Part shown: piece by piece, positions 2,455 through 42,595 of the stretch | How the letters are laid out: each line of letters opens with the position of its first letter | Position numbering within the stretch: position 1 is the first letter of the stretch | Source of the DNA: an uncultured Saprospiraceae bacterium | GTDB taxonomy: Bacteria; Bacteroidota; Bacteroidia; Chitinophagales; Saprospiraceae | Direction of reading: 5' to 3' | DNA: 45,852 nt | Assembly: GCA_964645475.1 (NCBI GenBank) | Contig: CAZYAC010000001.1 | Coordinates: forward strand, 1 to 45,852 | The notes under the pieces: model-generated | What the model saw: only the letters and a program-made list of their open reading frames with translations | The model's database searches: none | What the model was told of the DNA's origin: nothing | Made by a program: the position numbers and the translations under genes

Positions 2455-2466
2455 ATTTTTTTTGTT

Positions 2467-3504
2467 TTAAAAAAGTGCTTTTATGGCTGCTATTGCATTT
2501 CCAGCAACTTGTTCTGTGCTAAATTTTTTTTCAAAATACGATCTAGCATCTTTAGAGAATTTTTTGTAATTGTTTTTATTAAAAAAATTTATGGCCTCAA
2601 CCAAGGCTGTTGTTGAGCGAGGTTCGATGAGTAATCCTGTTTTTCTATTTTCTATAATTTCAGGAATCGCTTTCCAATTGGTTGTAATTACTGGTAAGCC
2701 TAAGCTATACGCTTCAATGATTACTCCAGGATATCCTTCTCCTTGATAAAAAGTTGGAAGTATTAAAACATCATATTTCTCTATGGTTTCTAACACTTCT
2801 TCTTTTTGTAAAACACCTTGATAAACTCCTTTTTGTTCGTCAAATTTTTCTTGAAATGACTTCCCTTGAGTCGATTCATAATTTTCTCTGATTGGTCCAT
2901 AAATATGAATGGTATAATCATCAGCGAGTTGTCTGGCAGCTTCTAATAAATGATCGATTCCTTTTGATTTGTTCACAAACCCTAAGTAAATAAACCGTTT
3001 TTCAAAATCTCGATTCCCTCTCACTTTTGTTGGCTTATCTCTTGAAGTCGGCAACTGAACGGTGTTGATATTTTTATTTTGATAAAACTGCATTAATTTT
3101 TTAGTTTGCAAAAAGAGTAAATCTGTTTTTAAGGTAGTTTTCTTAAATATCCAGTTTTGTAATTTACCAAACCGTGCTGTATAATCTTTAAAATCGCCTC
3201 CAAAAGGTCGCACCACAAATTTCAATCTAAATAACTTTGCAATAAGGTATAAAATGGGAGAAAGATATTTTATACCTTTGTCGCTACAGTTTAAAAATAG
3301 CACGTCTGCTCTAAAAACGGTTTTTAAAACCTTTAACAGCACTAAAAAAGGATTTAAAATTTTCATTTTACCATTCGCAAAATGCTGCGTATTGACCAAG
3401 GTAAAAGATTCATTAAATACTTTCAAATAATCAATCAAGTACCCAAAAGAAATCGTGGCCCCTCCAATTAGATTTTCTTCTACATTGGTAACTGGTCCGA
3501 TCAA
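2467..3504 (-). CDS. Glycosyltransferase, GT4 (GT-B) family
   Basis: C-terminal EGYPGVIIEAYSLGLPVITT...TGLL corresponds to the E-x7-E-type donor-binding region of GT4 enzymes. Confidence 0.75.
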   Translation of the reverse strand: MIGPVTNVEENLIGGATISFGYLIDYLKVFNESFTLVNTQHFANGKMKILNPFLVLLKVLKTVFRADVLFLNCSDKGIKYLSPILYLIAKLFRLKFVVRPFGGDFKDYTARFGKLQNWIFKKTTLKTDLLFLQTKKLMQFYQNKNINTVQLPTSRDKPTKVRGNRDFEKRFIYLGFVNKSKGIDHLLEAARQLADDYTIHIYGPIRENYESTQGKSFQEKFDEQKGVYQGVLQKEEVLETIEKYDVLILPTFYQGEGYPGVIIEAYSLGLPVITTNWKAIPEIIENRKTGLLIEPRSTTALVEAINFFNKNNYKKFSKDARSYFEKKFSTEQVAGNAIAAIKALF

Positions 3505-27385: not shown

Positions 27386-28948
27386 TTATCTTATTTGAAG
27401 TTGTTCTTTTAATGCTGATCGTTTTACTTTACCCGAACCTGTTCTGGGAAAAGATGCCACAAAGGTAATTTTCTCTGGAATAGCATAAACTGGTAATTTA
27501 GTTTTTAAAAATAGTATCAATGCTTCCTCCTTAATATCCATACCAGACCGCAAAATAATCACCGCTTCTAATTTCAAATTTTCCTCTTTTTCCTTTACCG
27601 CTAAAACGACCGCTTCTTCTACTACATCATGTGATACTAGCTTTGCTTCTATCGAGCCTAACTCAATACGATATCCACGGATTTTAACTTGGTAATCTTT
27701 TCGACCTAAAAAATGCAAAACATGATCTGCATCTAAACGAACTAAATCACCAGTCCGATAAAAGATATCATCTATATTTGCACTGTTTTTTCTTCGATAA
27801 AACGACTGTTCAGTTAGTGCTGGTTGCTGCCAATATCCTTTCATCATCGTAGCACTTCGCACACATAACTCTCCCACTCCAGTTTTTAATTCTTCCTCAT
27901 TTTCATCGAGGACAATGCTCGCGGTATTTTTCCAAACCTTACCTAGAGGAATACCCTCTTCACCAACTGGTGGACTAGGGATATTGTAATACGTACATTG
28001 ATTTAATTCTGTTGGACCGTAGATATTACTAAACTTGGCATGGCTCCAAAGTTCCATCAATTGACGTAAATATTTAGGTGGAAATGCCTCTCCTGCATAA
28101 AAAACCCACCGTAAGCTATGCATGTTTTTTTCTTCCAATGATCCATTTTGGAGCATTTGAATTAAGGCTAAGGGGACTGAATACCAAACCGTTATTTTTT
28201 CTTTTTCTATTAGCTGACTCAAACTCGCTGGCAAGACAATATGAGCATCAGAAGCAATGACGGTACAACCTCCTACAAAAGGCGCGGTAAAATATCCAAG
28301 GGTAGAAATATCAAAATAAATGGGTGCATGGTTTCCAAAAACATCATTTTCGTTTAACCCATAAAGATCTGCCGTCAAGCGAGCATACGCTAGACCACTG
28401 GCATGGGTATGCATGATTCCTTTGGGATTTCCAGTAGAACCAGAAGTGTAAATAATGTAGGCAATATCATTTTCCAAAACAGGAAAAGGCAAGGTAAGTA
28501 TTGTTGGTTGTTCTTCTAATTGCTCCCATAAAAAACTAGGAATATTACCAGCTTCTTTCACCCCTATTATGGCATCTAAATCTACCTTCGATTCAATGAT
28601 ATTTTGAATATTCCTTCTTTGTGCATTATTGGTAATTAAAATTTTAATCCCACAATCATTGATAAGAAAACGAGTTCTCTCAATCGGTACTTTGGGATCG
28701 AGCGGAACATAAATGGCTCCCGCTTGCATGATCCCATACATTGCAATTGCGGTCTCTAAACTTCTATTTAAATAAATTCCAATTCGATCTCCTTTTTCTA
28801 TTCCAACTTGATGGAGCAAATTAGCCAACTGGTTCATTTTTACATTTATCTCGCTAAAAGTCAACGACTTAGCACCAAATCGAAATGCTTCTCGATTGGG
28901 AAATTGCTTGGCAGAATTTGAAATAGTATGTGGCAATAAATAAATCAC
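27386..28948 (-). CDS. Free-standing NRPS-type adenylating enzyme (DltA-like amino acid--carrier protein ligase)
   Basis: YIIYTSGSTGNPKG, FDISTLGY (an Asp235 equivalent is present, so an amino-acid substrate is likely), NIYGPTE, YRTGDLV, GRKDYQVKIRGYRIELGSIE and GSGKVKR. Hand-derived specificity residues D-I-L-Y-F-A-I-Q-C-K match no code I recognise. Confidence 0.8.
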   Translation of the reverse strand: MIYLLPHTISNSAKQFPNREAFRFGAKSLTFSEINVKMNQLANLLHQVGIEKGDRIGIYLNRSLETAIAMYGIMQAGAIYVPLDPKVPIERTRFLINDCGIKILITNNAQRRNIQNIIESKVDLDAIIGVKEAGNIPSFLWEQLEEQPTILTLPFPVLENDIAYIIYTSGSTGNPKGIMHTHASGLAYARLTADLYGLNENDVFGNHAPIYFDISTLGYFTAPFVGGCTVIASDAHIVLPASLSQLIEKEKITVWYSVPLALIQMLQNGSLEEKNMHSLRWVFYAGEAFPPKYLRQLMELWSHAKFSNIYGPTELNQCTYYNIPSPPVGEEGIPLGKVWKNTASIVLDENEEELKTGVGELCVRSATMMKGYWQQPALTEQSFYRRKNSANIDDIFYRTGDLVRLDADHVLHFLGRKDYQVKIRGYRIELGSIEAKLVSHDVVEEAVVLAVKEKEENLKLEAVIILRSGMDIKEEALILFLKTKLPVYAIPEKITFVASFPRTGSGKVKRSALKEQLQIR

Positions 28949-30096
28949 AAGCCTAATAATTTTGCAATAATGTTACGTTGTATATCCGAAGTCCCTGCAT
29001 ATAAAATACCTCCTACAGAATCACGAAAATCTCGATCTACCCCTGTATCTGTTAAATAGCTAATGCCACCGAATGTACGCATTGCATCAAGGCTCGATTG
29101 TAAAAACGACTCACTCAAACTCAATTTTAACATAGCTGATTCCAACATAGCGGTTTCACCGTTTTGCTTTAACCATGCTGTTTTATACAATAATAACCTC
29201 GCCGTTTCTAAGCGCAATTTCATCTCCACGATCCGATTAGAAACAGATTGAAATTTACTGATTGATTGATCGTATTGTTTACGTTCTTTGGCAAAATTTA
29301 TCGTGTTTTCTAACTGTCGCTCCATTGCTCCTAATTGACTGGCTAAGATACAACAGCGATCATATTCTAAGGAATGATTAAGGATACTAAATCCTAGGCC
29401 TTCGCTGCCAAGGATATTTTCATGCGGAATTAAACAATCTTTAAATTCCAATGCTCCAATAGGAATAGAACGCATCCCCATTTTAGATTTTCTTTCACTT
29501 CGTTGAAATCCTGGCGTATCTTTGTCCACCAAAAAAGCAGAAACGCCCCATTTTCCTAATTCAGGTTTAGCATTGGCAAACACCAAGACAAAATCACAAA
29601 TTGGAGCCAAGGTGATAAGATGTTTTTTACCATTGAGTAAATAGCCATCTGATTGTTTTATGGCCGTCATTTCCATGCTAAAGATATCTGATCCCGCGTT
29701 GGGTTCCGTCAAAGCATGGCAGCCAATTAACTGTCCTTTAGCCATCGGAACGAGATATTTTTGTTTCTGTGTTTCATTACCAAAATGCAGTATTGGAGTT
29801 TGTACCGTCCACATCTGTGCATTGAGTCCAAAGGCTAGTCCATTATCTTCACAGCCATATCCAAAGCCTTCCATTGCTAGCAAGGCTCTCATAAAATCGA
29901 CTTTTTCAAAATCGCCACCATAGGGTTGGGTGACGGCAAGAGACTGAATACCGAACTGTGCACATTTCTGCCATAACGCTATTGGAAATGTTTCTGTTTT
30001 ATCTCTTTCTAGGACATGGATATTAAGTTCGTTCTTTGCAAAAGAAATAACTTCCTCTTTAAATTCCATATAATCCTCAGGCCAAGAAAAATCCAT
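28945..30096 (-). CDS. Acyl-CoA dehydrogenase-family flavoprotein (probable acyl/aminoacyl-S-carrier-protein dehydrogenase)
   Basis: CHALTEPNAGSD and the ACAD N/M/C domain order. C-terminal YAGTSDIQRNIIAK has a variant of the catalytic-base region (usually YEG; here Y-A-G). 4-nt overlap with the ligase gene. Confidence 0.75.
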   Translation of the reverse strand: MDFSWPEDYMEFKEEVISFAKNELNIHVLERDKTETFPIALWQKCAQFGIQSLAVTQPYGGDFEKVDFMRALLAMEGFGYGCEDNGLAFGLNAQMWTVQTPILHFGNETQKQKYLVPMAKGQLIGCHALTEPNAGSDIFSMEMTAIKQSDGYLLNGKKHLITLAPICDFVLVFANAKPELGKWGVSAFLVDKDTPGFQRSERKSKMGMRSIPIGALEFKDCLIPHENILGSEGLGFSILNHSLEYDRCCILASQLGAMERQLENTINFAKERKQYDQSISKFQSVSNRIVEMKLRLETARLLLYKTAWLKQNGETAMLESAMLKLSLSESFLQSSLDAMRTFGGISYLTDTGVDRDFRDSVGGILYAGTSDIQRNIIAKLLGL

Positions 30097-30336: not shown

Positions 30337-32109
30337 ATGTTTAAAATATTTACAGAGAGAGAGAAATTTAAATTTGTTGGTCTTGCCGTAGCTATCCTTA
30401 TCATGGGATTTCTGGAGGTGATAGGAGTAGCGTCTATCTTACCTTTTATGCAATTAATTGCAGAACCTAATGCCATAGAACAATCTTCCGTACTATCTGC
30501 AGGCTATCGTTTTTTCGGTTTTGAAACTCATCGAGAGATGCTTATCTATTTTGGTATTGGTATTATTGTTCTTATTGGTATCACGAATATCTTTGCGATT
30601 TTTACAACTTGGATACAATATAAATATTCTTGGGCTGTAGCTCATAATTTAAGCATTCGCTTACTACAGACTTATATTGGAAAACCGTATTCCTACTATC
30701 TAAAGACCAATACTTCAAAATTACAAACTTATATTGTATCCGAGGTCAACATGTTGACTGGAGGTATTATTATTCCATTTATAGAAGTAATCTCTAGGTC
30801 CTTTGCGGCGATCATTATTTTCACCTTACTATTGACGGTTGATACTAAGATTGCACTCATCATGTTCGGAAGTTTAGGGTTTGCTTATTTTTTAATCTAT
30901 CTTTCCCAAAAGGGTTTTCTTAGAAAGATTGGAACCCACAGAATAGAAATGAATATGCTTCGCTATCAAAGTTTACAAGAACTTTTAGATGGCATAAAAA
31001 CGATTCTAGTTTATAACAAGCAGCATTTTTTCTATAATAGATTTGAATATGCATCTAAAGAATTTTGTGATGTACAACCAAAGTATAATTTATTATTAGC
31101 TGCTCCTAGATATATTTTAGAATTTTTAGCTTTTGGGAGTATCCTTGGCGTTACGATGTATTTATACACCTCTGAGGGAAATATCCAATCAGCTATTCCA
31201 AGGTTAAGCCTTTATGCGGTAGCTGGATATCGACTATTACCAGCTTTACAGAAATCTTTTGCAGCAGCAGCCAAAATCAAACATAATTATCCCGTATACG
31301 AAAGATTGCGTGATGATTTAGAATATAGCTTAAAACATACCCTCAAATCAGCTTCTCCCCCTCTTCCATTGCCCTTTAAAAAGGTTATTGAGATAAACCA
31401 TTTGGGATATTCTTACGAAAATGTGGAAAATACCGTAATAAAAAATCTAAATTTGAGAATTGTTAAAGGTGAAATAGTTGCCTTTATTGGTTCTACTGGC
31501 TCTGGTAAAACTACCTTCGTTGACTTGATTGTTGGTCTGCTACACCCAAAAACTGGTTCTATAGATGTAGATGGAATTCCATTAACACCAAAAAATATTC
31601 AGTCATGGCGGGATAATTTAGCGTATGTTCCTCAAGAAGTCTTTTTATTTGATGATACGGTTCTCAAAAATTTGGTAATTGATAATAATCAAGAGACGCT
31701 TGACTTTGAAAGATTAAAGCAGGTATGTCGAATAGCCAATATTCTCGATTTTATCGAACAAGAATTGCCTAAAGGGTTTGAAACTAAAATTGGAGAGCGA
31801 GGTGTACGTCTGAGTGGTGGACAGAGACAACGTCTAGGTCTAGCGCGAGCTTTGTATACCAATCCTGAACTATTAATACTAGATGAAGCTACTAGCGCAT
31901 TAGACAGTATTACTGAAAAAAACATTATATCTTCTTTAAAACAACTGCCTGCTGATATTACCATTATTATTATTGCTCACAGACTTTCGACCATCAAACA
32001 TGCTGACTGTATTTATGTACTGGATAATGGAAGTATTTTTTCAAAGGGTAACTATAATACTTTGATGGAAACAAATGATACTTTTAGAACTATGGTAAAA
32101 CTTTCCTAA
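30337..32109 (+). CDS. ABC exporter, fused permease/ATPase (MsbA/type I exporter-like)
   Basis: Six N-terminal TM segments, Walker A GSTGSGKTT, signature LSGGQRQR, Walker B LLILDEATS and H-loop IAHRLS. Confidence 0.85.
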   Translation: MFKIFTEREKFKFVGLAVAILIMGFLEVIGVASILPFMQLIAEPNAIEQSSVLSAGYRFFGFETHREMLIYFGIGIIVLIGITNIFAIFTTWIQYKYSWAVAHNLSIRLLQTYIGKPYSYYLKTNTSKLQTYIVSEVNMLTGGIIIPFIEVISRSFAAIIIFTLLLTVDTKIALIMFGSLGFAYFLIYLSQKGFLRKIGTHRIEMNMLRYQSLQELLDGIKTILVYNKQHFFYNRFEYASKEFCDVQPKYNLLLAAPRYILEFLAFGSILGVTMYLYTSEGNIQSAIPRLSLYAVAGYRLLPALQKSFAAAAKIKHNYPVYERLRDDLEYSLKHTLKSASPPLPLPFKKVIEINHLGYSYENVENTVIKNLNLRIVKGEIVAFIGSTGSGKTTFVDLIVGLLHPKTGSIDVDGIPLTPKNIQSWRDNLAYVPQEVFLFDDTVLKNLVIDNNQETLDFERLKQVCRIANILDFIEQELPKGFETKIGERGVRLSGGQRQRLGLARALYTNPELLILDEATSALDSITEKNIISSLKQLPADITIIIIAHRLSTIKHADCIYVLDNGSIFSKGNYNTLMETNDTFRTMVKLS

Positions 32110-32120
32110 AACACAATTTA

Positions 32121-33353
32121 ATGAAACAAAGAATCACCTCTATTTTTTTTTTAATCCTCGTTCTTAGTTTTTTTCTTCCTAACTTAGTCCAAGCACACTC
32201 CCCTGATCAAAGCTATTTATACTTAAGAATATATAAAGCATCCATCGGTGGTCGTTTTGAGATGACGGCTAAGGACATGAATAAAGCACTTGACTTAAAT
32301 CTAAATGATAAATTAGATATGGCTAGTGTGAAACCTCACTTACCAAAAATTTATGCCTACTTAAAAAGTAGATCTTCCTTTCAAGCTGGTGCTGAAAAAT
32401 ATACCGTTGAATTCCAAGAATCAACGATCTTAAGCTTAGAGGAAATGGAAGATTTTGTGCGCTTTCATTTTGATTTAAAAGGCGTAACCAAAGTACCAGA
32501 AGGAATGGATATTGGCTATGAAGTTCTATTTGATAAAGATCCCATTCACAGAGGTGTCCTCATCGTCGAATATAATTGGAAGGCCGGAATTGTCAATAAT
32601 GAGGCATTAATGTCTAATATCTATAGCCCTGGAAACACCTTACAAAATCTTTCGCTTGCTGATGTATCGTTGTGGAAAGGATTCGTTGCATTAGTAAAGT
32701 TAGGGGTATGGCATATCTGGATTGGATTGGATCATATCTTATTTATTATTGCGCTTATCTTACCTTCTGTCGTGCGACGAAGAAAAGAAGGAGATGCACT
32801 CACTGCGCTTGACAGTAATAGCGCTTGGATTCCAGTCGACAACTTCAAATCTGCATTTTTATACATCATTAAAATAATCACTTTTTTTACCATCGCTCAC
32901 TCCATCACTTTAGCATTGGCATCCCTCAACATTGTCAATCTCCCTTCTTGGCTGGTAGAGTCTATCATTGCTTTTTCGATTGCACTTGCTGCGTTACACA
33001 ATATTACGCCCATCTTTAAAAGCAAAGAATGGATTATTGCTTTTGGATTTGGTTTATTTCATGGATTTGGATTTGCTAGTGTTCTTGGCGAAAAAGGTTT
33101 AGGTGGCGATTATATGATTTTATCCTTACTGGGTTTTAATGTCGGGGTTGAATTGGGTCAAGTACTCATCATCTGCATGGTATTTCCTTTTCTTTATCTA
33201 CTCAGAAAACAAAAAATATATCCTCCGATCATCAAATACGGCTCTATCGTTTTAATTTTAATTTCTTTCTATTGGATGTACGAAAGAATATTTGATGTTG
33301 AGTTGGCTTGGGGTGGTTATTTTTGGAATATCTATGATGCGATTTTCAAGTAA
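32121..33353 (+). CDS. HupE/UreJ_2-family membrane protein with N-terminal periplasmic domain
   Basis: Signal peptide ending VQA|HSPD. C-terminal TM bundle with GVWHIWIGLDHILFIIAL, FTIAHSITLA and LFHGFGFA motifs typical of HupE/UreJ-type metal permease-like proteins. Confidence 0.65.
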   Translation: MKQRITSIFFLILVLSFFLPNLVQAHSPDQSYLYLRIYKASIGGRFEMTAKDMNKALDLNLNDKLDMASVKPHLPKIYAYLKSRSSFQAGAEKYTVEFQESTILSLEEMEDFVRFHFDLKGVTKVPEGMDIGYEVLFDKDPIHRGVLIVEYNWKAGIVNNEALMSNIYSPGNTLQNLSLADVSLWKGFVALVKLGVWHIWIGLDHILFIIALILPSVVRRRKEGDALTALDSNSAWIPVDNFKSAFLYIIKIITFFTIAHSITLALASLNIVNLPSWLVESIIAFSIALAALHNITPIFKSKEWIIAFGFGLFHGFGFASVLGEKGLGGDYMILSLLGFNVGVELGQVLIICMVFPFLYLLRKQKIYPPIIKYGSIVLILISFYWMYERIFDVELAWGGYFWNIYDAIFK

Positions 33354-33409: not shown

Positions 33410-36400
33410 ATGTCTTCAGATCCTAAAAATAAAAAATCCTCCATTTTAGCACAATGGCGAAATCGTAAAAAAGACGTTTCGCCTGCTTTTACTATTCCCC
33501 TAAAACCGAAAGAGGAAATTGCTAGACCTTCAAGTGGTCAACATCGACTTTGGTTATTACAAAAACTATATCCTGAAAATCCCTTCTATCAATATGCTCA
33601 TTTATATACCATAAAAGGAACACTAGATATTGATTTACTAAAGGATAGTTTCCAATTTTTAATAGATAAACATGCTATTTTAAGAACTAACTTCTTAGAG
33701 ACCGAAGAAGGGGTGATTTTAAAAATTAATCCTACTGAAAAATTAAATTTTGATTTTACTGACCTATCTGATTTGAAGGTTGAAACAGCGCAACAACAAG
33801 CTCAAAAAACCATCCAAACACATGCGCTTAAAACATTCAACCTTGAAAAAGATAGCTTAGTCAGGCTCCATTTATTAAAAATAACTAAAGACCAATTTCT
33901 TTTAGCCTTATCTATTCATCATATCATCGGAGACCGTTCTTCTCTACTATTAATGAATCAGGAATGGCTCAGATATTACAAAACGATTAAGGAAAATAAA
34001 GACATTCCCTCTTTTGATAAAAACAGTATACAATACGTAGACTATGCCCACTGGAAAAACCAACAAGCAACCAAGGAAAAAGATATCCAATATTGGCAGC
34101 AAAAACTAAGTGGACCGTTAGCGACACTTGCTTTGCCTACTGATTTCCAAAGACCAAAGGAATTTAAATTTAAAGGATCTACTATACGTCAGTTATTGTC
34201 TCCCACTGTTTCACAACAACTAAAACAATTAGCTAAAGACCAACAAACTACCATGTACGTGGTCCTTTTGAGTGCGTTCAAAACCTTATTATTTAGATAT
34301 ACGCATCAAGAAGACATCATTGTTGGTTGTCCTTTTAGTACAAGAGATCAAAAATCCTTAGAACAACTCATTGGATTTTTTAATGAAACTTTAGTTTTAA
34401 GAACTAGACTCTCAGATCAACTCAAATTTAGTGATTCTATTGCTGCGGTCAAAGAAACATCCATACAGGCATTGACCCATAAAAATGTCGGATTTGATGA
34501 ATTAGTTAAACGTATAAAACCCGGACGAAAGGGTACGACCAATCCATTATTTCAAATCATGTTTGTCTATAATGAGGTAGCTAATCGTCAAGCCCTTGAA
34601 GGGTTATCCATCACAGAAGAAACGATAGACTTAGGGGTTTCAAAATTTGATCTTACGCTTTTTGCAACAGATCAAGAAGATACCATTGAGCTTGCTTTAG
34701 AATTCTCCACAGAGCTATTTGAGTTAGAAACGGCAGCGCGAATATTAGACCACTTAAGCGATTTATTGACATCAATTGCAGGGGATCCTGCCCAGCAAAT
34801 TTCGCAAATCTCTTTTCTTGGAGCACAAGAAAAATCTAAGCTTTTAACGGAATGGAATAATACCAGTGTCAAGATTCCTTCCTATGATTCCATTCATCAA
34901 TTATTTGAAGAAAAGGCGACCCATCAACCTAACAAAATTGCGGTAGCATGTAATGGAGAAAAAATAAGTTATGGGGAACTCAACCAAAAAGCCAATCGGT
35001 TAGCTCAAAAACTGCTAACTTCTGGCGTCAAACCAAATGAATTTGTAGGTCTTTTTACAGGCCGCAGCATGGCGATGGTCATCGGCATTTTAGGAATATT
35101 AAAATCAGGTGCTGCTTATCTTCCACTCGATCCAAAATATCCAACCAAACGAATTGAATTCATGGTGGACGATGCAAAAATCAACACCATTTTGTATCAA
35201 AAAAAATGGGAAAAAGAAGTACCGCTTACGGTGGCATTTAGTCACAGCATTGAAGACGCTATCATTGAAAAAAAACAAGTAGATATTACTTTACCTACGA
35301 TTAGTAAAGATCAACTGGCCTATATTATTTATACTTCAGGCAGTTCTGGTATTCCTAAAGGCGTAGCGATCTCTCATCAAAATTTAATTCACTCAACTGC
35401 TGCTCGTTTTTATTTTTTCGAACAAAACCCTACTGCTTTTTTACTACTCTCTTCTTTTTCTTTTGATAGTTCTGTAGCTGGTATTTTCTGGACGCTTTGT
35501 ACTGGTGGAACTTTGGTTTTGCCACCAGCAAGAATCGAACAAGATATGCGAGCGTTGGCCCAAATAATTTTTGATCATAAAGTCAGCCATACTTTGTTAT
35601 TACCTAGTTTATACAAACTATTATTGGATAACAACAGTACTAGCGCACAGTTGGCTTCTTTACAAACCGTAATGGTAGCTGGAGAAGCTTGCTCGTCAGC
35701 TACCGTATTAGCTCATTTTAAGAAAACTAATAACGTTGAGTTGGTTAATGAATATGGCCCTACAGAAGGAACGGTCTGGTCTACAGCCTATCATATAACG
35801 CCCAAAGATGCGTTTGCAAATATCCCTATCGGGCGACCAATCCCTAACACACAACATTATATTCTAGATAAAAATGAAGCACTGCTGCCTATTGGTATTC
35901 CTGGAGAACTCCACATCGCAGGAGCAGGTATTGCTAATGGATATTGGCAGCGACCTGAATTAACGGCAAAGCGTTTTATTAGTAAATCTTTTGTCTCTTC
36001 AACGAGTGATAAACTTTATAAAACTGGAGATTTAGTCCGCTATCGAAAAGACGGAATCATTGAGTTTTTAGGGCGAATAGATCAGCAGGTAAAGATTAGA
36101 GGTCACCGAATAGAATTAGACGAAATCAAAAATCATTTACTTCACTTAGCATCGGTGGAGGATGCTTTAGCTATTATCCAAAATAGGGATACCGTCCCTC
36201 GTTTGGTTGCCTATATTATTCCAACCAATAAGGAAGAGGCTGTTTCTTTTAAAGAGGCATTGACAGAGCGTTTACCAAACTACATGATCCCTTCTGCTTT
36301 TATTAATTTGACGGAATTTCCAACATTACCCAATGGAAAGATTGACTACTCCGCTTTGCCAATTCCAACAAAAAATGACTTTATACCGGATCACGCATTT

Positions 36401-37435
36401 GTGGCAGCTAAAACAGAAATTCAAAAACAATTGACCGCCATATGGGAGTCTATATTGCAGTTAACACCCATTGGCATCCATGATAATTTCTTTGCAATAG
36501 GAGGGGATTCTATTCGTAGTATACAAATAATTAGTAAGGCTCAAGAACAGGGTATCGAAATTGCTCCTCATCATATTTTTGAGTATCAGACTATTTATAA
36601 ACTCGGTACTTTTTTAGAAAATGTAAATCAATCAAATGAGGAAAATACCAATTGGGCCTCTCTAGTCCCTCTAAAAAAAGAAGGAACTAGAAGATCGCTT
36701 TTTTGTATTCACTCTGGAGGAGCACATGTTTTTTTCTATCAAGGGTTGGCAAAATATATCGAAGCAGATCAACCATTATATGCGCTCCAACCTTCGGGAC
36801 TTAATAATGAAAATCATTTGCATTCCTCTATTGAAGAAATGGCGAGTTATTATATCTCTGAAATGCAAAAATTACAACCACACGGACCTTACTATATTCT
36901 TGGGACTTGCTTTAGCAACGCGGTAGGTCTAGAAATGGCCAATCAATTAGCGCTAGCTGGAGAGTCAATAGCACGACTAATTATCGTAGATTCAGGGCCT
37001 CAATATTTACTGGGGGCGGCGGAGCGAGGAGGAAAGAAAACCACTCGACGCTTTGTAAAAATGGTCAAAGAAAAAAATTGGTCGGGAATTCGAAAAAAAC
37101 TTCGCAATCGATTTATTAGAACCAAACAAAAAGCATTGGCTCCATTAGAGAATGAACAAGAAAAAAACCTACGATTGACCATCAATTCTCTAAATCAACT
37201 CTATCATAATTATACTTGGAAGCCATTCAACGGAAAAGTTACTTTTATTCGTAGTACAGAATTTGCAAATAGGACAGATAAAAATAGTCATCTAACACAA
37301 TGGCATAAATTAGCAAAAGGAGGGCTAGAAGTTCATATCGTAGAAGGGCATCATAAAACGCTATTCGAAGAACCAGAAGTACAGGGCTTAGCTCAGCAAA
37401 TTAATGCTTGTTTGATGGATGAAAATATCAAATAG
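33410..37435 (+). CDS. Non-ribosomal peptide synthetase terminal module C-A-T-TE
   Basis: C domain with HHIIGDRSS. A domain: YIIYTSGSSGIPKG, NEYGPTE, GELHIAGAGIANGYW, YKTGDLV, GRIDQQVKIRGHRIELDEI, LPNGKIDYSALP. T domain IGGDSIRSI. TE with GTCFS, DSGP and GHH. Hand-derived specificity residues D-S-A-L-M-A-E-V-W-K are unassigned. Confidence 0.9.
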   Translation: MSSDPKNKKSSILAQWRNRKKDVSPAFTIPLKPKEEIARPSSGQHRLWLLQKLYPENPFYQYAHLYTIKGTLDIDLLKDSFQFLIDKHAILRTNFLETEEGVILKINPTEKLNFDFTDLSDLKVETAQQQAQKTIQTHALKTFNLEKDSLVRLHLLKITKDQFLLALSIHHIIGDRSSLLLMNQEWLRYYKTIKENKDIPSFDKNSIQYVDYAHWKNQQATKEKDIQYWQQKLSGPLATLALPTDFQRPKEFKFKGSTIRQLLSPTVSQQLKQLAKDQQTTMYVVLLSAFKTLLFRYTHQEDIIVGCPFSTRDQKSLEQLIGFFNETLVLRTRLSDQLKFSDSIAAVKETSIQALTHKNVGFDELVKRIKPGRKGTTNPLFQIMFVYNEVANRQALEGLSITEETIDLGVSKFDLTLFATDQEDTIELALEFSTELFELETAARILDHLSDLLTSIAGDPAQQISQISFLGAQEKSKLLTEWNNTSVKIPSYDSIHQLFEEKATHQPNKIAVACNGEKISYGELNQKANRLAQKLLTSGVKPNEFVGLFTGRSMAMVIGILGILKSGAAYLPLDPKYPTKRIEFMVDDAKINTILYQKKWEKEVPLTVAFSHSIEDAIIEKKQVDITLPTISKDQLAYIIYTSGSSGIPKGVAISHQNLIHSTAARFYFFEQNPTAFLLLSSFSFDSSVAGIFWTLCTGGTLVLPPARIEQDMRALAQIIFDHKVSHTLLLPSLYKLLLDNNSTSAQLASLQTVMVAGEACSSATVLAHFKKTNNVELVNEYGPTEGTVWSTAYHITPKDAFANIPIGRPIPNTQHYILDKNEALLPIGIPGELHIAGAGIANGYWQRPELTAKRFISKSFVSSTSDKLYKTGDLVRYRKDGIIEFLGRIDQQVKIRGHRIELDEIKNHLLHLASVEDALAIIQNRDTVPRLVAYIIPTNKEEAVSFKEALTERLPNYMIPSAFINLTEFPTLPNGKIDYSALPIPTKNDFIPDHAFVAAKTEIQKQLTAIWESILQLTPIGIHDNFFAIGGDSIRSIQIISKAQEQGIEIAPHHIFEYQTIYKLGTFLENVNQSNEENTNWASLVPLKKEGTRRSLFCIHSGGAHVFFYQGLAKYIEADQPLYALQPSGLNNENHLHSSIEEMASYYISEMQKLQPHGPYYILGTCFSNAVGLEMANQLALAGESIARLIIVDSGPQYLLGAAERGGKKTTRRFVKMVKEKNWSGIRKKLRNRFIRTKQKALAPLENEQEKNLRLTINSLNQLYHNYTWKPFNGKVTFIRSTEFANRTDKNSHLTQWHKLAKGGLEVHIVEGHHKTLFEEPEVQGLAQQINACLMDENIK
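36692..37414 (+). other. Thioesterase domain of NRPS2 with Cys in the nucleophile position (G-T-C-F-S)
   Basis: YYILGTCFSNAVGLEMA aligns to the usual LxGxSxGG nucleophile elbow. The codon TGC at 36908-36910 encodes Cys1167. Putative Asp is in IIVDSGP and putative His in VEGHHKT. Confidence 0.7.
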
Positions 37436-38051
37436 CAGTTCTACAAAGAATTGCTTTGGCAGGGGTTTTAGAGGTGACAATCACCTGATGTTTGCTTTCT
37501 GGTGGAATACGCATAAAGTCTCCTTTATTCATATGAAAAACGGTATCATTTATATAGCAATCTACGGTTCCTTCCAAAATTAGGAACCGCTCATCTAGTT
37601 TTGGATGTTCTTCTAAAGGAATACCTTTTTTGACCCACACTACTAATAATTCTCGTTGCTCATCCGCATATAATCGGGTAGGAAAAATATTATCGTACTT
37701 GTTTGGCGGTCTCAATTCTTTGATCACTGCTTCCACTTTTTCGATGGGCGTGTGTATAGAAATATTGATGAAATGAGGTGATAATTTAGTTTTATTATCT
37801 AATTGAGTCTCAGCCCATAACTTATTATCTTGTATTACAGTTTTTATGACATGTAAGGAATTTAAAGGTGGTTTTTTTTTTATAGTAGAAAAAAACTTCG
37901 AATTGGATTTAGCCGTTTGTTTCATATAATCCTTTACCTCAGGGTGCTGTTCGCTCATCCGGATAAGCTCAGCTGCCTTATCAACACTAAGAATCCCTAG
38001 ATAATATTCTTCGATAACACCGCTCTCTATATATTTTTTAATATCTGTCAT
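37428..38051 (-). CDS. Anti-sigma factor, ChrR-like (N-terminal anti-sigma domain without CxxC, C-terminal cupin)
   Basis: N-terminal IEEYYLGILSVDKAAELIRMSEQHPEVKDYM resembles an anti-sigma domain. The C-terminal ERFLILEGTVDCYINDTVFHMNKGDFMRIPPESKHQV is a cupin fold. 1-nt TAATG junction with the sigma gene. Confidence 0.6.
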   Translation of the reverse strand: MTDIKKYIESGVIEEYYLGILSVDKAAELIRMSEQHPEVKDYMKQTAKSNSKFFSTIKKKPPLNSLHVIKTVIQDNKLWAETQLDNKTKLSPHFINISIHTPIEKVEAVIKELRPPNKYDNIFPTRLYADEQRELLVVWVKKGIPLEEHPKLDERFLILEGTVDCYINDTVFHMNKGDFMRIPPESKHQVIVTSKTPAKAILCRTAI

Positions 38052-38596
38052 TAATGATCTATTAGTTTTCTAAGATCTTTATATCCTTTTCTTATTCTAC
38101 TTTTTACGGTACCCAACGGAATATTCAACTCTTTTGCAACTTCTGATGAGGTATACCCTTCAAAATAAATGAGATTTAATATTACGCTAGATTTAGCATC
38201 TAATTTAGCTACTTTACTTCTTACGTCAATAGTATCAACAGAGATACTAATAGTAGTAGATTTTTTACAAGAATGTAAATTATCTAAACTAACCAAGCGA
38301 ATCATTTGCGAATAATTCTTTGACCTAATCATATCTATGGCCGTATTTCGAGCTATCCGAACCATCCAAGTCAATAATACACCTTTTTCTGCATCAAATG
38401 AATTAATATTATTCCAAACTTTTAAGAACGTATCTTGGAGTACGATTTCAGCAAAATCCTCTAGCTTTATTATTTGGCAAATAAAACCATACACATACCT
38501 CCCATATCTATGATACAGGAATTCGATGCCTTGCTCATCTTGGGCTATAATTAAGGAAATAATTTCTTTATCTCTTTCGTTTACAGGTATTTTCAT
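38051..38596 (-). CDS. ECF-type RNA polymerase sigma-70 factor
   Basis: Region 2 is LQDTFLKVWNNINSFDAEKGVLLTWMVRIARNTAIDMIR. Region 4 is ILNLIYFEGYTSSEVAKELNIPLGTVKSRIRKG. I prefer the start at MKIPVNER (38596) over the track start 38710. Confidence 0.8.
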   Translation of the reverse strand: MKIPVNERDKEIISLIIAQDEQGIEFLYHRYGRYVYGFICQIIKLEDFAEIVLQDTFLKVWNNINSFDAEKGVLLTWMVRIARNTAIDMIRSKNYSQMIRLVSLDNLHSCKKSTTISISVDTIDVRSKVAKLDAKSSVILNLIYFEGYTSSEVAKELNIPLGTVKSRIRKGYKDLRKLIDH

Positions 38597-38857
38597 TAAA
38601 AAATATTTCTTATTATTGGTTTCTAACCAATAGTATTTTTTGAGCTTTAAATCTAGTTTCCGGTTCACTTCCTTATAGAGGAAGAAACAAACCAAAGTGG
38701 CTATTTTCAAAAAAATTGCCTTATTTCATCGTGATTCATCATTAATAATCTGGAGATCGAAAGTAATAATAAAGTCACGAGATTAATCTACAGACAAACA
38801 ATTTGCTGTTGAAAAACTAGCTGCAACGTCAGTATTTTGTCATTTGGTGAGCTTTTA

Positions 38858-39595
38858 TTAGAGTTGATTGTTTTTGAAGGTATTCTTAGCCAAAAGCTTC
38901 AAAATAGAAGTATCTATGTGATCTAGAAGGTGCTTTAGCTGACCTTGTCGGTGTAAGTCAGTCCCCAAATAATCTACCAATCCAGCTTTTATTAGCTTCA
39001 CGGCTAGTTTTTTTTGAGCGGAACCATAATATCCCGCCAAAGAAAGTAAATTGACCTGTAGACTACACCCCATGGATTTTATTTTTTCAAATTGGTCAAA
39101 CTTATTTTTATAGTATAAATAACGTTCTGGATGTGCTAAAATAGGATGATATCCCTTTGTGTTGACAGTGAAAATAGTATTATGAATATTTGCGGGTTCA
39201 GATAATGTCGAAAATTCAATCAAAATTTTTTGATCTGAAAAACTTAATAATTCAACATTAGTTGCTAGTAAATTTTCGAAATAATCATCAACATAGTATT
39301 CAGCCGCTGCGCCCAATTCTATCTCAACTTCTGCAGTTGTAAGTGCAGCGCTTAAATCGTTTAAGCCTGATCGAATATTCTCTGGTGTATTGGGATAATA
39401 ATCACCAAATATATGAGGAGTAGTAATAATTTTTTTAAAGCCCATTTTCTTTAGGGTTTTGACCATTTCCACTGCCTCTTCTACCGTTTTAGCACCATCA
39501 TCAATGCCGGCAATCAAATGAGAATGCATATCCGTTTGTAGGAAAGAAAAGTCTATTTCTTCCGTACGATGTTTTTTTTTGAAAAATGAGAACAT
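38858..39595 (-). CDS. cpsB: PHP-family protein-tyrosine phosphatase (CpsB/CapC/YwqE-type)
   Basis: DMHSHLIAGIDDGA, ITTPH and LAHPERY are the CpsB metal-binding His/Asp motifs. Confidence 0.8.
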   Translation of the reverse strand: MFSFFKKKHRTEEIDFSFLQTDMHSHLIAGIDDGAKTVEEAVEMVKTLKKMGFKKIITTPHIFGDYYPNTPENIRSGLNDLSAALTTAEVEIELGAAAEYYVDDYFENLLATNVELLSFSDQKILIEFSTLSEPANIHNTIFTVNTKGYHPILAHPERYLYYKNKFDQFEKIKSMGCSLQVNLLSLAGYYGSAQKKLAVKLIKAGLVDYLGTDLHRQGQLKHLLDHIDTSILKLLAKNTFKNNQL

Positions 39596-40199: not shown

Positions 40200-40372
40200 G
40201 AGATGTTAATTAAATAAATGCAACATTATGCTTTATTTAATCGCCATCCCTAATTCATTATTAAAAAATAAGGACAAACTCCTTTTTCCTAAAATCTGTA
40301 CTTACCTGTATGATTTGAATAATCTTCTTATCATACCTAAACTTATGGTTTGTGTTGAATAAATTAAAAGAA

Positions 40373-42595
40373 ATGACCAAATTTATAATACTCCTATTTT
40401 CTCTTTTATCTACTTACTCCTTTGCTCAAGATATACAAGGCAAAGTAACCGACAATTCAAAAGTCCCCATTATAAACGCCGATATTTATATCAATCAAGG
40501 GGACAAACACAGCCATAGTGATCACCAAGGGCTTTTTAAGCTAAAAAATATTACGGTAGGTGACACACTCATTATCAACTATTTAGGCTATCAAACTATT
40601 GAACACATTTTAGAAGAAAAAGACTTTGATCGTGTTTTAAACTTTTCCATGAAAGAAGCCTTCTTTGATCTAGAACAAGTCAGTATTTCTAATTCGGTTA
40701 AATCAGTCAATAGAGTTTCGTCCATTGATTTGAAAATTTCCCCTGTCAATTCATCTCAAGAAATATTGCGAAAAGTACCAGGTCTCTTTATTGGTCAACA
40801 TGCTGGAGGAGGAAAAGCAGAACAAATATTTTTAAGAGGATTTGATATTGATCATGGTACAGACATAACCATTGCAGTAGATGGTATGCCGGTAAACATG
40901 GTTTCGCACGCGCATGGACAAGGATACGCTGATCTGCATTTTTTGATCCCAGAAACCATTGATAATATTGACTTTGGAAAAGGACCATACTACAGTGATA
41001 AAGGAAATTTTAATACAGCCGGCTATGTAGAATTCAAAACCAAAGATAAGATTGACAAAAGTACTATTGGATTAGAATATGGTCAATTTAATACAGGTCG
41101 TTTGTTTGGTTTAATAAACTTGTTAAGTACAAATAAACACAATGCTTATCTAGCCACAGAATACTTATTGACCGATGGACCCGTAGATTCTCCACAAGAT
41201 TTTAATCGAATAAATTTAATGGGAAAATATACAGGTGAATTTGATAATAATGATCGATTTTCTGTTTTAATTAGTCATTTTCAAAGCAAATGGAACGCTT
41301 CTGGTCAGATTCCACAACGACTTGTAGACAATGGTACCATCACTAGGTTTGGTAGTGTGGATGATACCGAAGGTGGTCAAACAAGTAGGACAAATTTAGC
41401 CATTGATCACACCAAAAATATTAATGAAAATTCATTTTTAAAAACAACAGCTTATATCAGCAAATATGATTTTGAACTCTATTCTAACTTTACTTTTTTC
41501 TTAAATGATCCGATCAATGGAGATCAAATTAGACAACGAGAAAGTCGAAAACTATTTGGAATAAATACTAGGTTATTTCAAAACTATGAACTTAATAACA
41601 CGGATCTAGAAATGAGTTATGGCGTAGGATTGCGATATGATGATATTAATGAAAATGAACTTTCTAGAACAAGAGATCGTAGAACCGTCTTAAGTAATAT
41701 TTCGCTGGGAGAAGTCGATGAAACCAACCTCTATACTTTCATCAACGCAGAATTTGATTTTGGAAAATGGCTCATCAACCCAGGAGTGCGATTAGATGTT
41801 TTTAAGTTTGATTATGTGGATCAATTGGCAAATACTTTTACTAGTTTAACCGAAGCAAAAGCCATCGTTGCTCCAAAACTAAACATCTTATACAACCCTA
41901 GCTCCAAATGGCAACTATTCTTTAAATCCGGTGTTGGATTTCATTCCAATGACACCAGAGTGGTCGTCAATCAAAAAGGCACCGAGATTTTGCCTGCCGC
42001 CGTTGGATTGGATATAGGTACGATCTGGAAACCTTTCCCAAGACTTTGGATCAATACGGCGATTTGGTATTTATTTTTAGAGCAAGAATTTGTCTACGTA
42101 GGAGATGAAGGCGTTGTCGAACCTAGTGGAAAAACAGATCGTAGAGGAATAGACATTGGTGGTAGATACCAATTAGCCAATTACTTATTCTTAGACACTG
42201 ATTTTAATTATACAAAATCCAAATCAATCGACGAACCTGCGTCAGCCAACCGGATCCCATTGGCACCCGTCCTAACCGCAGCGGGTGGATTGTCGCTACA
42301 ATATCCCAATCAATTTTCGGCGAGTCTCCGTTATCGCTATATCAAAGATCGTCCTGCCAATGAAGACAACTCTATCGTGGCGGAAGGCTACTTTATCCTA
42401 GACTTCAATGCAAGCTATACTTTTAAAAAATTAACCCTAGGCCTAAATATTGAAAATTTACTCAACAGAGAATGGAACGAAACACAGTTTGCCACCACGT
42501 CCAGATTGTTTGAAGAACCAGAAGAAGTTGAAGAGATTCATTTTACGCCTGGCGTACCGTTCTTTTTGAAGGGGCAGATTAAATATAGTTTTTAG
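40373..42595 (+). CDS. TonB-dependent outer-membrane receptor with CarboxypepD_reg-like N-terminal domain
   Basis: Signal peptide MTKFIILLFSLLSTYSFAQD, then GKVTD...LIINYLGYQT (CarboxypepD_reg). Plug motifs are PGLFIGQHAGGGKAEQIFLRGFD. The long beta-barrel ends in a terminal aromatic residue (..IKYSF). I prefer the ATG at 40373 over the GTG at 40352. Confidence 0.85.
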   Translation: MTKFIILLFSLLSTYSFAQDIQGKVTDNSKVPIINADIYINQGDKHSHSDHQGLFKLKNITVGDTLIINYLGYQTIEHILEEKDFDRVLNFSMKEAFFDLEQVSISNSVKSVNRVSSIDLKISPVNSSQEILRKVPGLFIGQHAGGGKAEQIFLRGFDIDHGTDITIAVDGMPVNMVSHAHGQGYADLHFLIPETIDNIDFGKGPYYSDKGNFNTAGYVEFKTKDKIDKSTIGLEYGQFNTGRLFGLINLLSTNKHNAYLATEYLLTDGPVDSPQDFNRINLMGKYTGEFDNNDRFSVLISHFQSKWNASGQIPQRLVDNGTITRFGSVDDTEGGQTSRTNLAIDHTKNINENSFLKTTAYISKYDFELYSNFTFFLNDPINGDQIRQRESRKLFGINTRLFQNYELNNTDLEMSYGVGLRYDDINENELSRTRDRRTVLSNISLGEVDETNLYTFINAEFDFGKWLINPGVRLDVFKFDYVDQLANTFTSLTEAKAIVAPKLNILYNPSSKWQLFFKSGVGFHSNDTRVVVNQKGTEILPAAVGLDIGTIWKPFPRLWINTAIWYLFLEQEFVYVGDEGVVEPSGKTDRRGIDIGGRYQLANYLFLDTDFNYTKSKSIDEPASANRIPLAPVLTAAGGLSLQYPNQFSASLRYRYIKDRPANEDNSIVAEGYFILDFNASYTFKKLTLGLNIENLLNREWNETQFATTSRLFEEPEEVEEIHFTPGVPFFLKGQIKYSF

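Follow-up and report, generated by a model that had tools for sequence, protein, structure and literature searches.

What residue acts as the nucleophile in the terminal thioesterase (TE) of NRPS2, and what kind of chain release might that residue serve? NRPS2 is a predicted nonribosomal peptide synthetase (NRPS) encoded in a stretch of 45,852 nucleotides from an uncultured Saprospiraceae bacterium (GenBank assembly GCA_964645475.1, contig CAZYAC010000001.1, positions 1 to 45,852 of the forward strand), which at its full length we refer to as the window. A preliminary description of this DNA had drawn attention to a cysteine in the TE at the position where a serine is expected, and had connected it with an unusual offloading step. 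Here, we have used alignments, a structural model and a survey of related loci to place this TE among the known Cys-type enzymes (Cys-TEs). Its predicted triad is complete, and its layout is, on sequence grounds, that of the Cys-TEs which form amide bonds and not that of the enzymes which close four-membered rings. The reading that we favour, with roughly even confidence, is that the acyl-enzyme is resolved by a nucleophile other than water, probably a nitrogen.

A cysteine at the nucleophile elbow

The features that carry this argument are listed below by position in the window; A1 denotes an alignment of 16 diverse members of the TE family and AF2 an AlphaFold2 model of the domain built on A1 (pLDDT 84.7, pTM 0.81).

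33410..37435, + strand: NRPS2, 1341 residues, condensation-adenylation(His)-thiolation-thioesterase (C-A(His)-T-TE), predicted from the translated open reading frame (ORF), its Pfam domains and the A-domain signature DSALMAEVWK
36428..36613, + strand: T (peptidyl carrier protein) domain of NRPS2, PF00550, residues 1007-1068, with the phosphopantetheine-bearing Ser1034 at 36509-36511 (GGDS)
36695..37408, + strand: type I thioesterase domain, residues 1096-1333, from PF00975, the alpha/beta-hydrolase fold of the AF2 model and Foldseek matches
36908..36910, + strand: TGC, Cys1167, predicted catalytic nucleophile (elbow GTCFS), from alignment to the Ser or Cys of solved TEs; invariant in A1
36989..36991, + strand: GAT, Asp1194, predicted triad acid at position I (Cys+27, after beta6); invariant in A1 as D114 and aligned with ...vmiD... 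of AB3403
37352..37354, + strand: CAT, His1315, predicted triad base, second His of VEGHH; invariant in A1 as H235, in the loop after model strand 226-231 (beta8)

Pfam divides NRPS2 into Condensation (residues 41-479), AMP-binding (499-846), PP-binding (1007-1068) and Thioesterase (PF00975, 1096-1333) domains, and an epimerisation (E) domain is not among them. The TE follows the PF00550 carrier domain directly and matches PF00975 with an E-value of 2.5e-22 (80.7 bits against a Pfam cut-off of 26.4), whilst the 50 best Foldseek matches of its model are all TEs from NRPS, polyketide synthase (PKS) or fatty acid synthase (FAS) systems. Judged by its sequence and modelled fold, the domain is a type I NRPS/PKS thioesterase that is catalytically intact by its predicted triad.

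The motif ILGTCFSNAVG and the TGC codon of Cys1167 both lie where the preliminary description had placed them. When the TE was compared with all PDB chains using phmmer, the nucleophile segment YYILGTCFSNAVGLEMA aligned with several solved TEs, and the Cys1167 column held the nucleophile Ser in GWSLG of 7crn (partner segment YHLLGWSLGSLVIHAMA), the nucleophile Ser in GGWSFGG of NocB (LGGWSFGGVVALEMA), the nucleophile Ser of a fatty acid synthase TE (IAGYSYGACVAFEM) and the Cys of GWCFG in AB3403 (4zxh; FLGGWCFGGAIAYEI); the EntF TE was also among the matches. A profile of the 16-member family run against the PDB gave an identical register, with Cys1167 on the nucleophile. The AF2 model, in domain numbering, places C87 (Cys1167) between a strand (81-86) and a helix (89-102), which is the arrangement of a nucleophile elbow, with D114 (Asp1194) following strand 107-113 (beta6) and H235 (His1315) following strand 226-231 (beta8). 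Pairwise alignments, profile alignment and modelled elbow thus agree that Cys replaces Ser at this site, as had been proposed. Ser1169 had been named as a candidate that a proper alignment might prefer; Cys1167 occupies the nucleophile column of every alignment made, and Ser1169 sits on the second Gly of GxSxG. Since this +2 position is Gly in 36 Cys-type relatives, Ser1169 is not the nucleophile of the family. The departure from canonical GxSxG is therefore real, giving a GxCxS elbow with a Cys nucleophile, but it is not a peculiarity of this one protein, as the same elbow is common amongst its relatives.

A further residue of the active-site region deserves mention. The oxyanion-hole region of the TE reads HSGGAHVFFY and contains a second invariant histidine, His1106 (H26 of the domain; 36725-36727), whose equivalent is absent from 7crn (HPAGGLSWVY) and AB3403 (HPIGGSTFCY). 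On sequence grounds, His1106 may be an extra active-site residue peculiar to the Cys-TE clade.

Conservation of the cysteine

We pooled 203 aligned TE domain instances from both of our database searches. The nucleophile column holds Cys in 171 of them and Ser in 23, with another residue or a gap in the remaining 9, the position-I Asp is present in 183 of the 203, and the triad His in 166 of the 170 instances that cover its site. Amongst the homologs from the first search that cover the nucleophile, 32 of 33 have Cys. The preference is strongest close to the query: all 58 TE domains of at least 40% identity carry Cys, as compared with 84 Cys and 8 Ser at 30-40% identity. In A1, C87, D114 and H235 are invariant along with some 35-37 further positions. 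The commonest elbows are GTCFS (46), GYCFS (18) and VYCFS (17), all of the GxCxS type, with GxCxG in more distant members. Clusters scoring E<=1e-30 numbered 449 in an exhaustive search of representatives (50% clustering); the 150 top-scoring representatives of these were examined, and the majority are Cys-type. The NRPS2 protein itself occurs in identical form on three contigs, one of them from an independent assembly (Logan SRR5078291). A Cys codon (TGC) is one base away from Ser (AGC or TCC), and the invariance of the residue despite this speaks for Cys having been selected in its own right.

Among the more distant relatives, proteins with two TE domains are frequent, the pair being arranged in tandem or widely separated along the chain (P0063, P0067, P0078, P0081, P0083-P0085, P0100, P0113, P0114, P0122, P0123, P0125 and P0156). 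The combinations seen are Cys with Cys, Cys with Ser, and Cys with a partner whose nucleophile position is occupied by Gly, Ala or Asp. The sequence pattern suggests that a Cys-TE and a second TE, which is sometimes inactive, share the work between them.

Comparison with known thioesterases

Cys-type TEs make up about 2% of known TEs (PMC13288461), which bears out the earlier statement that they are rare. The companion statement, that characterised examples are tied to strained-ring release, does not hold in general: PmxE and MacB-TE form a 2,4-diaminobutyrate (Dab) macrolactam and BulbE-TE acylates an indole nitrogen. MacB-TE (macolacin) is a relative of the polymyxin PmxB-TE with the triad C89/D116/H218; it closes a Dab macrolactam, its C89S variant hydrolyses only, and it is reported to cluster with Ser-type cyclases (PMC13288461). 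BulbE-TE (bulbiferamide; C961/D988/H1097, with the Asp after beta6) N-acylates a Trp indole, and its C961S variant loses cyclisation and gains hydrolysis (PMC11536411). The rationale offered for BulbE is that a thioester is far more activated than an oxoester toward aminolysis but similarly activated toward hydrolysis (PMC11536411). SulM and ObiF1, by contrast, have the triad Asp relocated after beta7 (position II, as in RifR; PMC11298585, PMC6668435). ObiF1 has Gly1173 at Cys1146+27 (PMC6668435), and SulM has a Gln-Cys-Asn motif around its nucleophile together with a positively charged pocket (PMC11298585). Beside these ring formers, only one further Cys-TE, AB3403, has been solved, and its Asp stays after beta6 (PMC11298585).

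The position of the triad Asp, at Cys+27 or after beta7, separates the ObiF/SulM ring formers from other Cys-TEs, and so Cys alone is no flag for a beta-lactone or beta-lactam. The NRPS2 TE has the motif Thr-Cys-Phe(-Ser-Asn) and an invariant Asp at Cys+27 after beta6, which is the position-I layout. Its spacing (1167/1194) is the same as in BulbE-TE (961/988) and MacB-TE (89/116); the comparison with these two enzymes covers the triad and its spacing. Their substrates are longer peptides released through a Trp indole or a Dab amine, whereas the NRPS2 chain has three predicted units. With MacB-TE placed among Ser-type cyclases, position-I Cys-TEs may represent a convergent grade rather than a clade.

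The relatedness of the sequences and folds points the same way. Searched against the PDB at E<=10, the family profile retrieved 48 sequences, including 7crn (1.5e-37), AB3403 (6e-28) and RifR (7e-3) as well as the NocB, FAS, EntF, Pks13, fengycin, surfactin and Vlm2 TEs. Neither ObiF1 (6n8e) nor any SulM entry was retrieved from the PDB by the profile at this threshold or by single-sequence phmmer. Foldseek ranked 7crn, EntF, AB3403 and NocB first among PDB structures. Over the whole domain, lid included, the nearest solved TE is the Ser-type 7crn (profile 1.5e-37, TM-score about 0.72, Foldseek E 6e-19), but both 7crn and NocB differ from the NRPS2 TE in having Ser within GxSxG, identities of only 21-26% and lids that are not markedly cationic in the aligned segment.

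The best Cys-type match in the PDB is AB3403 (ABBFA_003403 or A1S_0115 of Acinetobacter baumannii; 4zxh/4zxi), with E-values of 9e-18 by phmmer, 6e-28 by profile and 4e-15 by Foldseek. It is likewise the terminal TE of a C-A-T-TE synthetase, has a Cys nucleophile (GWCFG) and an Asp after beta6 as in NRPS2, and is encoded in a cluster that also contains a stand-alone AMP-ligase, an acyl-CoA dehydrogenase (ACAD)-like enzyme and an acyl carrier protein (ACP), its product being a short acylated peptide-like compound. The two systems differ in that AB3403 has a GxCxG elbow, resembles the NRPS2 TE strongly in its N-terminal half only and has a lid that cannot be aligned, whilst its A domain prefers Gly rather than His and it lacks a partner NRPS containing an AMDH domain.

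With ObiF and SulM the NRPS2 TE shares a Cys nucleophile and, by prediction, a short substrate; the differences are the Asp after beta7 in those enzymes and their beta-hydroxy amino acid or 2,3-diaminopropionate (Dap) sulfamate substrates, set against an NRPS2 A domain that reads His. We compared the two on five testable points, and on four of these (Asp position, motif, A-domain substrate and sequence relatedness) the NRPS2 TE parts company with ObiF/SulM. The fifth sets the SulM pocket criterion of 2/3 Arg positions beside the lid net charge of +15 in NRPS2, a comparison in which equivalence of the Arg residues needs a structural alignment.

The cationic lid

36992..37240, + strand: lid region, residues 1195-1277, with three predicted helices (130-140, 144-162 and 169-187 of the AF2 model)

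A highly basic insertion had been described in this region. There is indeed a strongly cationic segment within the lid, GGKK...TKQK (residues 1207-1241, nt 37028-37132), which has 15 Lys or Arg against a single Glu and corresponds to the first two of the three predicted helices (130-140 and 144-162). It is not, however, an insertion: at 83 residues the lid has the usual length for the family (mean 83.3, sd 4.6), and 7crn, which the family profile aligns across the lid, is slightly longer there. The lid of NRPS2 carries a net charge of +15, compared with means of +8.1 (sd 4.6) for GxCxS members and +7.6 for the neighbouring Ser-TEs, and lids with a surplus of positive charge are the norm throughout this sequence neighbourhood. 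The cationic lid is a trait of the family, weaker in the relatives, and what it touches is probably the carrier domain, some anionic partner or the membrane.

The predicted assembly line

22920..27110, - strand: NRPS1, C-A(Asn)-[AMDH/WbuX-like PP-loop insert]-T, predicted upstream module, from Pfam, TIGR03573 and the signature DLTKIGEVGK
27117..30096, - strand: predicted prolyl-to-pyrrolyl-2-carboxyl starter trio, comprising an ACP (27117-27359, 80 residues), a stand-alone A protein (27386-28948) and an ACAD-like protein (28945-30096)

What the TE is likely to be handed can be estimated from the adenylation domains and their neighbours. Read with the standard anchors, the NRPS2 A domain has the signature DSALMAEVWK, which is identical at 9 of 10 positions to the code DSALIAEVWK, a published His signature that is also said to tolerate beta-hydroxyhistidine (PMC12283262). 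The pattern DS[AV]L[MIV]AEVW occurs in every ortholog with an A domain found, from Saprospiraceae to Flavobacteriaceae, with Thr/Ala variants in two. The signature of NRPS1, DLTKIGEVGK, is one of those listed for the Asp/Asn type, and it is said to be compatible also with beta-cyanoalanine. Between A8 and A9 this protein carries an insert of about 320 residues (nt 23433-24392) with the motif SGGKD at 24180-24194, which matches the NCBIfam model TIGR03573 (WbuX) at 1.5e-36, below the curated cut-off. An SGGKD-bearing insert in an Asn-type A domain is also how the AMDH domain is placed in CysH (cystobactamid) and AlbIV (albicidin), where it acts on carrier-bound Asn to give beta-cyanoalanine or isoasparagine (PMC7966384). 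Many orphan AMDH homologs exist, all within Asn-type A domains, and by 2021 the only products linked to such domains were cystobactamid and albicidin (PMC7966384). No other part of NRPS1 is as well conserved as the insert, whose identity is 69% in Flavobacteriaceae loci (L043, L065, L073 and L080), compared with 47% for the A core.

The starter trio lies upstream of NRPS1. Among NCBIfam models its ACAD-like protein matches PigA best (5e-118), followed by the prolyl-PCP dehydrogenase model RedW (6e-98), and neither match reaches the curated cut-off; the best stand-alone PDB match of the A protein is PltF (6o6e). In the locus of Flavilitoribacter nigricans (L030), an ornithine cyclodeaminase gene, a potential supplier of proline, stands beside the starter genes (2332-3438, - strand). 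A pyrrole-2-carboxyl starter is likely on account of these three resemblances and associations. Three Flavobacteriaceae loci (L065, L073 and L080) are without the ACAD and the stand-alone A protein, and the starter unit therefore seems variable. A fatty-acyl starter system like A1S_0112-0114 was considered and rejected, since the ACAD finds its best matches in PigA and RedW, and the A protein in amino-acid adenylation enzymes and PltF. From these signatures and family resemblances, the chain on Ser1034 should be pyrrolyl-2-carbonyl - beta-cyanoalanine/isoasparagine - His.

How the chain may be released

Taken together, these predictions describe a two-protein assembly line in which a starter, probably pyrrole-2-carboxyl derived from proline, would be held on the stand-alone ACP, the AMDH-type insert of NRPS1 would turn Asn into beta-cyanoalanine or isoasparagine, and NRPS2 would add histidine. 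Transthioesterification would then move the chain off the phosphopantetheine of Ser1034 and onto Cys1167, leaving it bound to the enzyme as a thioester. The nucleophile that releases it would most likely be a nitrogen, acting by aminolysis or azole N-acylation, and could lie within the chain or on an external acceptor, with an azole or amide nitrogen of the chain and an external amine or sugar as candidates. We infer a nucleophile other than water because MacB-TE and BulbE-TE need their Cys only for steps of this kind, and because close relatives of the NRPS2 TE show no swap to Ser. Resting as it does on sequence, a model and analogy, this account of a working Cys-TE (Cys1167/His1315/Asp1194) with nitrogen-dependent release is one that we judge to have about an equal chance of being right or wrong.

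Several observations weigh against it. The clade is known from sequence alone, and AB3403, the only solved close Cys relative, is itself uncharacterised. The substrate predictions are built on signatures of 9-10 residues and on family resemblance, with ACAD and WbuX matches that fall below NCBIfam cut-offs. The predicted chain has three units, and the macrocyclisations that explain the Cys in MacB and BulbE have no obvious counterpart in it; nor was a gene supplying an acceptor identified in the cluster. Some distant relatives in the same sequence neighbourhood use Ser, and so Cys is not obligatory for the fold. Finally, release of a free acid by hydrolysis, followed by glycosylation by the neighbouring family 1 glycosyltransferase (GT1), fits the gene content equally well.

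This last point leads to the main rival, plain hydrolysis, in which a linear acyl-(cyanoalanine/isoasparagine)-His acid is released and then glycosylated and exported, with the Cys being chemically unnecessary. Such a chain is short and offers no obvious internal nucleophile, the GT1 and the ABC exporter, both conserved neighbours, could act on a free acid, and a peptide ending in X-X-His with a free carboxylate would suit metal binding beside the HupE/UreJ-like permease encoded next to NRPS2. The similar rates at which thioesters and oxoesters hydrolyse mean that a Cys-TE is able to act in this way. A Ser would suffice for the purpose, however, and is a single mutation away, yet Cys is retained in all 58 relatives of at least 40% identity across several bacterial families; the Ser variants of MacB-TE and BulbE-TE, moreover, still hydrolyse whilst losing their native product, showing that in those enzymes hydrolysis does not require Cys. 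We consider hydrolysis less probable than nitrogen-dependent release, though a serious contender. An epimerising TE is a weaker proposition. Here the thioester would lower the pKa of the alpha-proton of the C-terminal His and allow inversion before release, as in 7crn (skyllamycin-type) and NocB (nocardicin). The top PDB match in sequence and fold, 7crn, was deposited as a bifunctional epimerising and cyclising TE, the NocB TE is among the top matches, and NRPS2 lacks an E domain; against this, 7crn and NocB use Ser and share only 21-26% identity with the query, and similar scores are obtained by the EntF and AB3403 TEs, for which no epimerisation is known. We regard epimerisation as improbable.

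The two remaining rivals fare worse. A strained-ring former like ObiF or SulM would release the chain by cyclising its C-terminal residue to a beta-lactone or beta-lactam, and the preliminary description had leaned towards this chemistry. A Cys nucleophile working on a short chain recalls ObiF and SulM, the cationic lid is reminiscent of the positively charged SulM pocket, the His signature is said to tolerate beta-hydroxyhistidine (PMC12283262), and a sulfotransferase is encoded at 416-1495, some 30 kb away. The invariant Asp nevertheless stands at position I, where ObiF1 has Gly (Cys+27), the motif is T-C-F and not Q-C-N, and ObiF1 and SulM escape a family profile that, at E<=10, finds RifR and dozens of Ser-TEs. 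The A-domain signature indicates His and not Dap, neither a beta-hydroxylase nor a threonine transaldolase turned up in the window or in those orthologous loci that were examined, and the sulfotransferase belongs to the polysaccharide part of the window and is not conserved with the cluster. By its sequence, the NRPS2 TE is not a four-membered-ring former of the ObiF/SulM type, and we give this alternative very little weight. The broader suggestion of a non-standard offloading step is still plausible; what has fallen away, through the triad layout, the profile searches and the A-domain signature, is the strained ring. Least credible of all is that the TE is degenerate or inactive, or that the nucleophile codon was misread in sequencing. 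The GxCxS elbow does depart from GxSxG at two positions, but the triad, which is complete and conserved, and about 35-37 other positions are invariant in 16 diverse members, the Cys recurs in independent genomes and metagenomes as well as on the three contigs that encode the identical protein (one from Logan SRR5078291), and the AF2 model is confident. Conservation refutes this idea.

Gene cluster and genomic context

30337-32109, + strand: ABC exporter (Pfam), present in 38 of 80 related loci
32121-33353, + strand: HupE/UreJ_2 membrane protein, 410 residues (Pfam), directly upstream of the TE-bearing NRPS in 59 of 80 loci
20758..22908, - strand: GT1 glycosyltransferase (N-terminal ~470 residues) and Wza-like exporter in one ORF of 716 residues (Pfam, NCBIfam)

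We compared 80 related loci, counting neighbours within 10-kb flanks. These come mostly from Saprospiraceae/Lewinellaceae, Cyclobacteriaceae and Flavobacteriaceae, with a few from Acidobacteria and one each from Rhodothermales and Chromatiales metagenome-assembled genomes. The ABC exporter and HupE/UreJ_2 genes are co-oriented with NRPS2 and lie directly upstream of it, and the ACAD, stand-alone A and ACP genes are further conserved neighbours of the TE-bearing NRPS. The HupE/UreJ_2 protein has a signal peptide and an N-terminal extracytoplasmic part of about 170 residues, in which His would be the first residue after cleavage, and its transmembrane helices contain conserved His residues. The GT1 part is found near the cluster in 10 related loci, mostly directly downstream of the TE gene; in one of them (L065) the GT1 is a separate gene of 437 residues immediately after the TE gene, followed by a phosphopantetheinyl transferase. 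At the GT1-Wza junction of the 716-residue ORF there is a lipoprotein-type signal sequence (MGKYYSIIWLFMISLCLGSC), and the ORF may represent either a genuine fusion whose membrane anchor is internal or a pair of genes that have lost the stop codon between them.

The same TE is found in other architectures amongst the relatives, namely C-A-T-C-T-TE, a separate C-T-TE and T-TE. Many orthologs have an extra C-T pair without an A domain ahead of the Cys-TE, either as C-A-T-C-T-TE proteins of about 1870-1930 residues (L009, L010, L013, L015-L017, L019-L022, L025, L028 and L034) or as separate C-T-TE proteins of about 800-830 residues (L031, L036, L039, L040, L048, L053, L054, L056, L059, L067, L069, L074 and L076). 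How this final carrier domain, lacking its own A domain, is loaded in these orthologs could bear on the identity of the release acceptor.

A polysaccharide locus with Wza, Wzc, Wzy, NeuB and sulfotransferase genes occupies 416-22908. Its genes at 416-20669 (- strand, co-directional with NRPS1) encode Wzc, NeuB, a UDP-GlcNAc 2-epimerase, a cytidylyltransferase, Wzy, three FkbM-type methyltransferases, GT11 and GT4/GT1 enzymes, an AsnB-like amidotransferase, a hexapeptide acyltransferase, two epimerase/dehydratases and the sulfotransferase (416-1495), a gene content that points to a sulfated polysaccharide containing a nonulosonic acid. The idea that the NRPS decorates this adjacent Wza/Wzc/Wzy polysaccharide has its attractions, since only 11 nt lie between NRPS1 and the GT-Wza ORF downstream, in a window that is itself a large exopolysaccharide locus. 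We have downgraded it, given that Wza and Wzc are not kept beside the TE in the 80 related loci, the GT1 part alone being conserved there, and that the Flavobacteriaceae version of the cluster closes with GT1 and, in L065, a phosphopantetheinyl transferase. The link between cluster and polysaccharide is probably positional.

On the other side of NRPS2, a gene for a 207-residue protein with a C-terminal cupin is convergent with the TE gene and overlaps its stop codon, and also overlaps the gene for a sigma-70 factor of the extracytoplasmic function (ECF) type. This cupin/sigma region (37428-38710, - strand) is followed by a CpsB/CapC phosphatase (38858-39595, - strand) and a TonB-dependent receptor (40352-42595, + strand). 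Judged by sequence features, the cupin protein and the ECF sigma factor are possibly a ChrR-like anti-sigma/sigma pair. Synteny of the cupin, sigma and CpsB genes extends to the closest Saprospiraceae loci (L002, L003, L009, L014, L016 and L021). Literature searches found no product for the cluster.

Implications for the family

Cys-type NRPS TEs with a position-I triad are already known, and one, AB3403, has been solved. What is new here is a large, coherent and uncharacterised GxCxS Cys-TE clade, housed in an orphan but conserved Bacteroidota cluster with an AMDH-type domain. To our knowledge, every Cys-TE that has been assayed carries out chemistry that Ser cannot, be it the formation of a beta-lactone, a beta-lactam, a Dab macrolactam or an N-acyl indole, and such enzymes are therefore flags for unusual products and attractive biocatalysts. 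The cluster is carried by several cultured strains (Flavilitoribacter nigricans DSM 23189, Neolewinella persica DSM 23188, Neolewinella lacunae KCTC 42187, Algibacter marinivivus ZY111 and Leptobacterium flavescens KCTC 22160), and so the question of release is directly testable.

A connection of the predicted pyrrolyl-X-His chain with nickel or copper is conceivable. At its most ambitious, and as a speculation that we think unlikely to hold, the argument would make the GxCxS Cys-TEs a distinct and widespread Bacteroidota class of offloading enzyme, whose obligatory thioester intermediate would allow a kind of release without precedent, be it azole N-acylation of very short chains or hand-over to an external or membrane acceptor, in the service of a new family of nickel or copper metallophores resembling the amino-terminal copper and nickel binding (ATCUN) motif. 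If this is the case, the acylated azole nitrogen would be that of the pyrrole or the imidazole, by analogy with the indole acylation of BulbE, or else the membrane hand-over would be guided by the cationic lid. The product would be a glycosylated pyrrolyl-(cyanoalanine/isoasparagine)-His, in which the pyrrole nitrogen, two amide nitrogens and the His imidazole would mimic the ATCUN (X-X-His) nickel or copper site, and a metallophore of this kind would explain the near-invariable HupE/UreJ-type permease as well as the nearby TonB receptor and ECF sigma factor.

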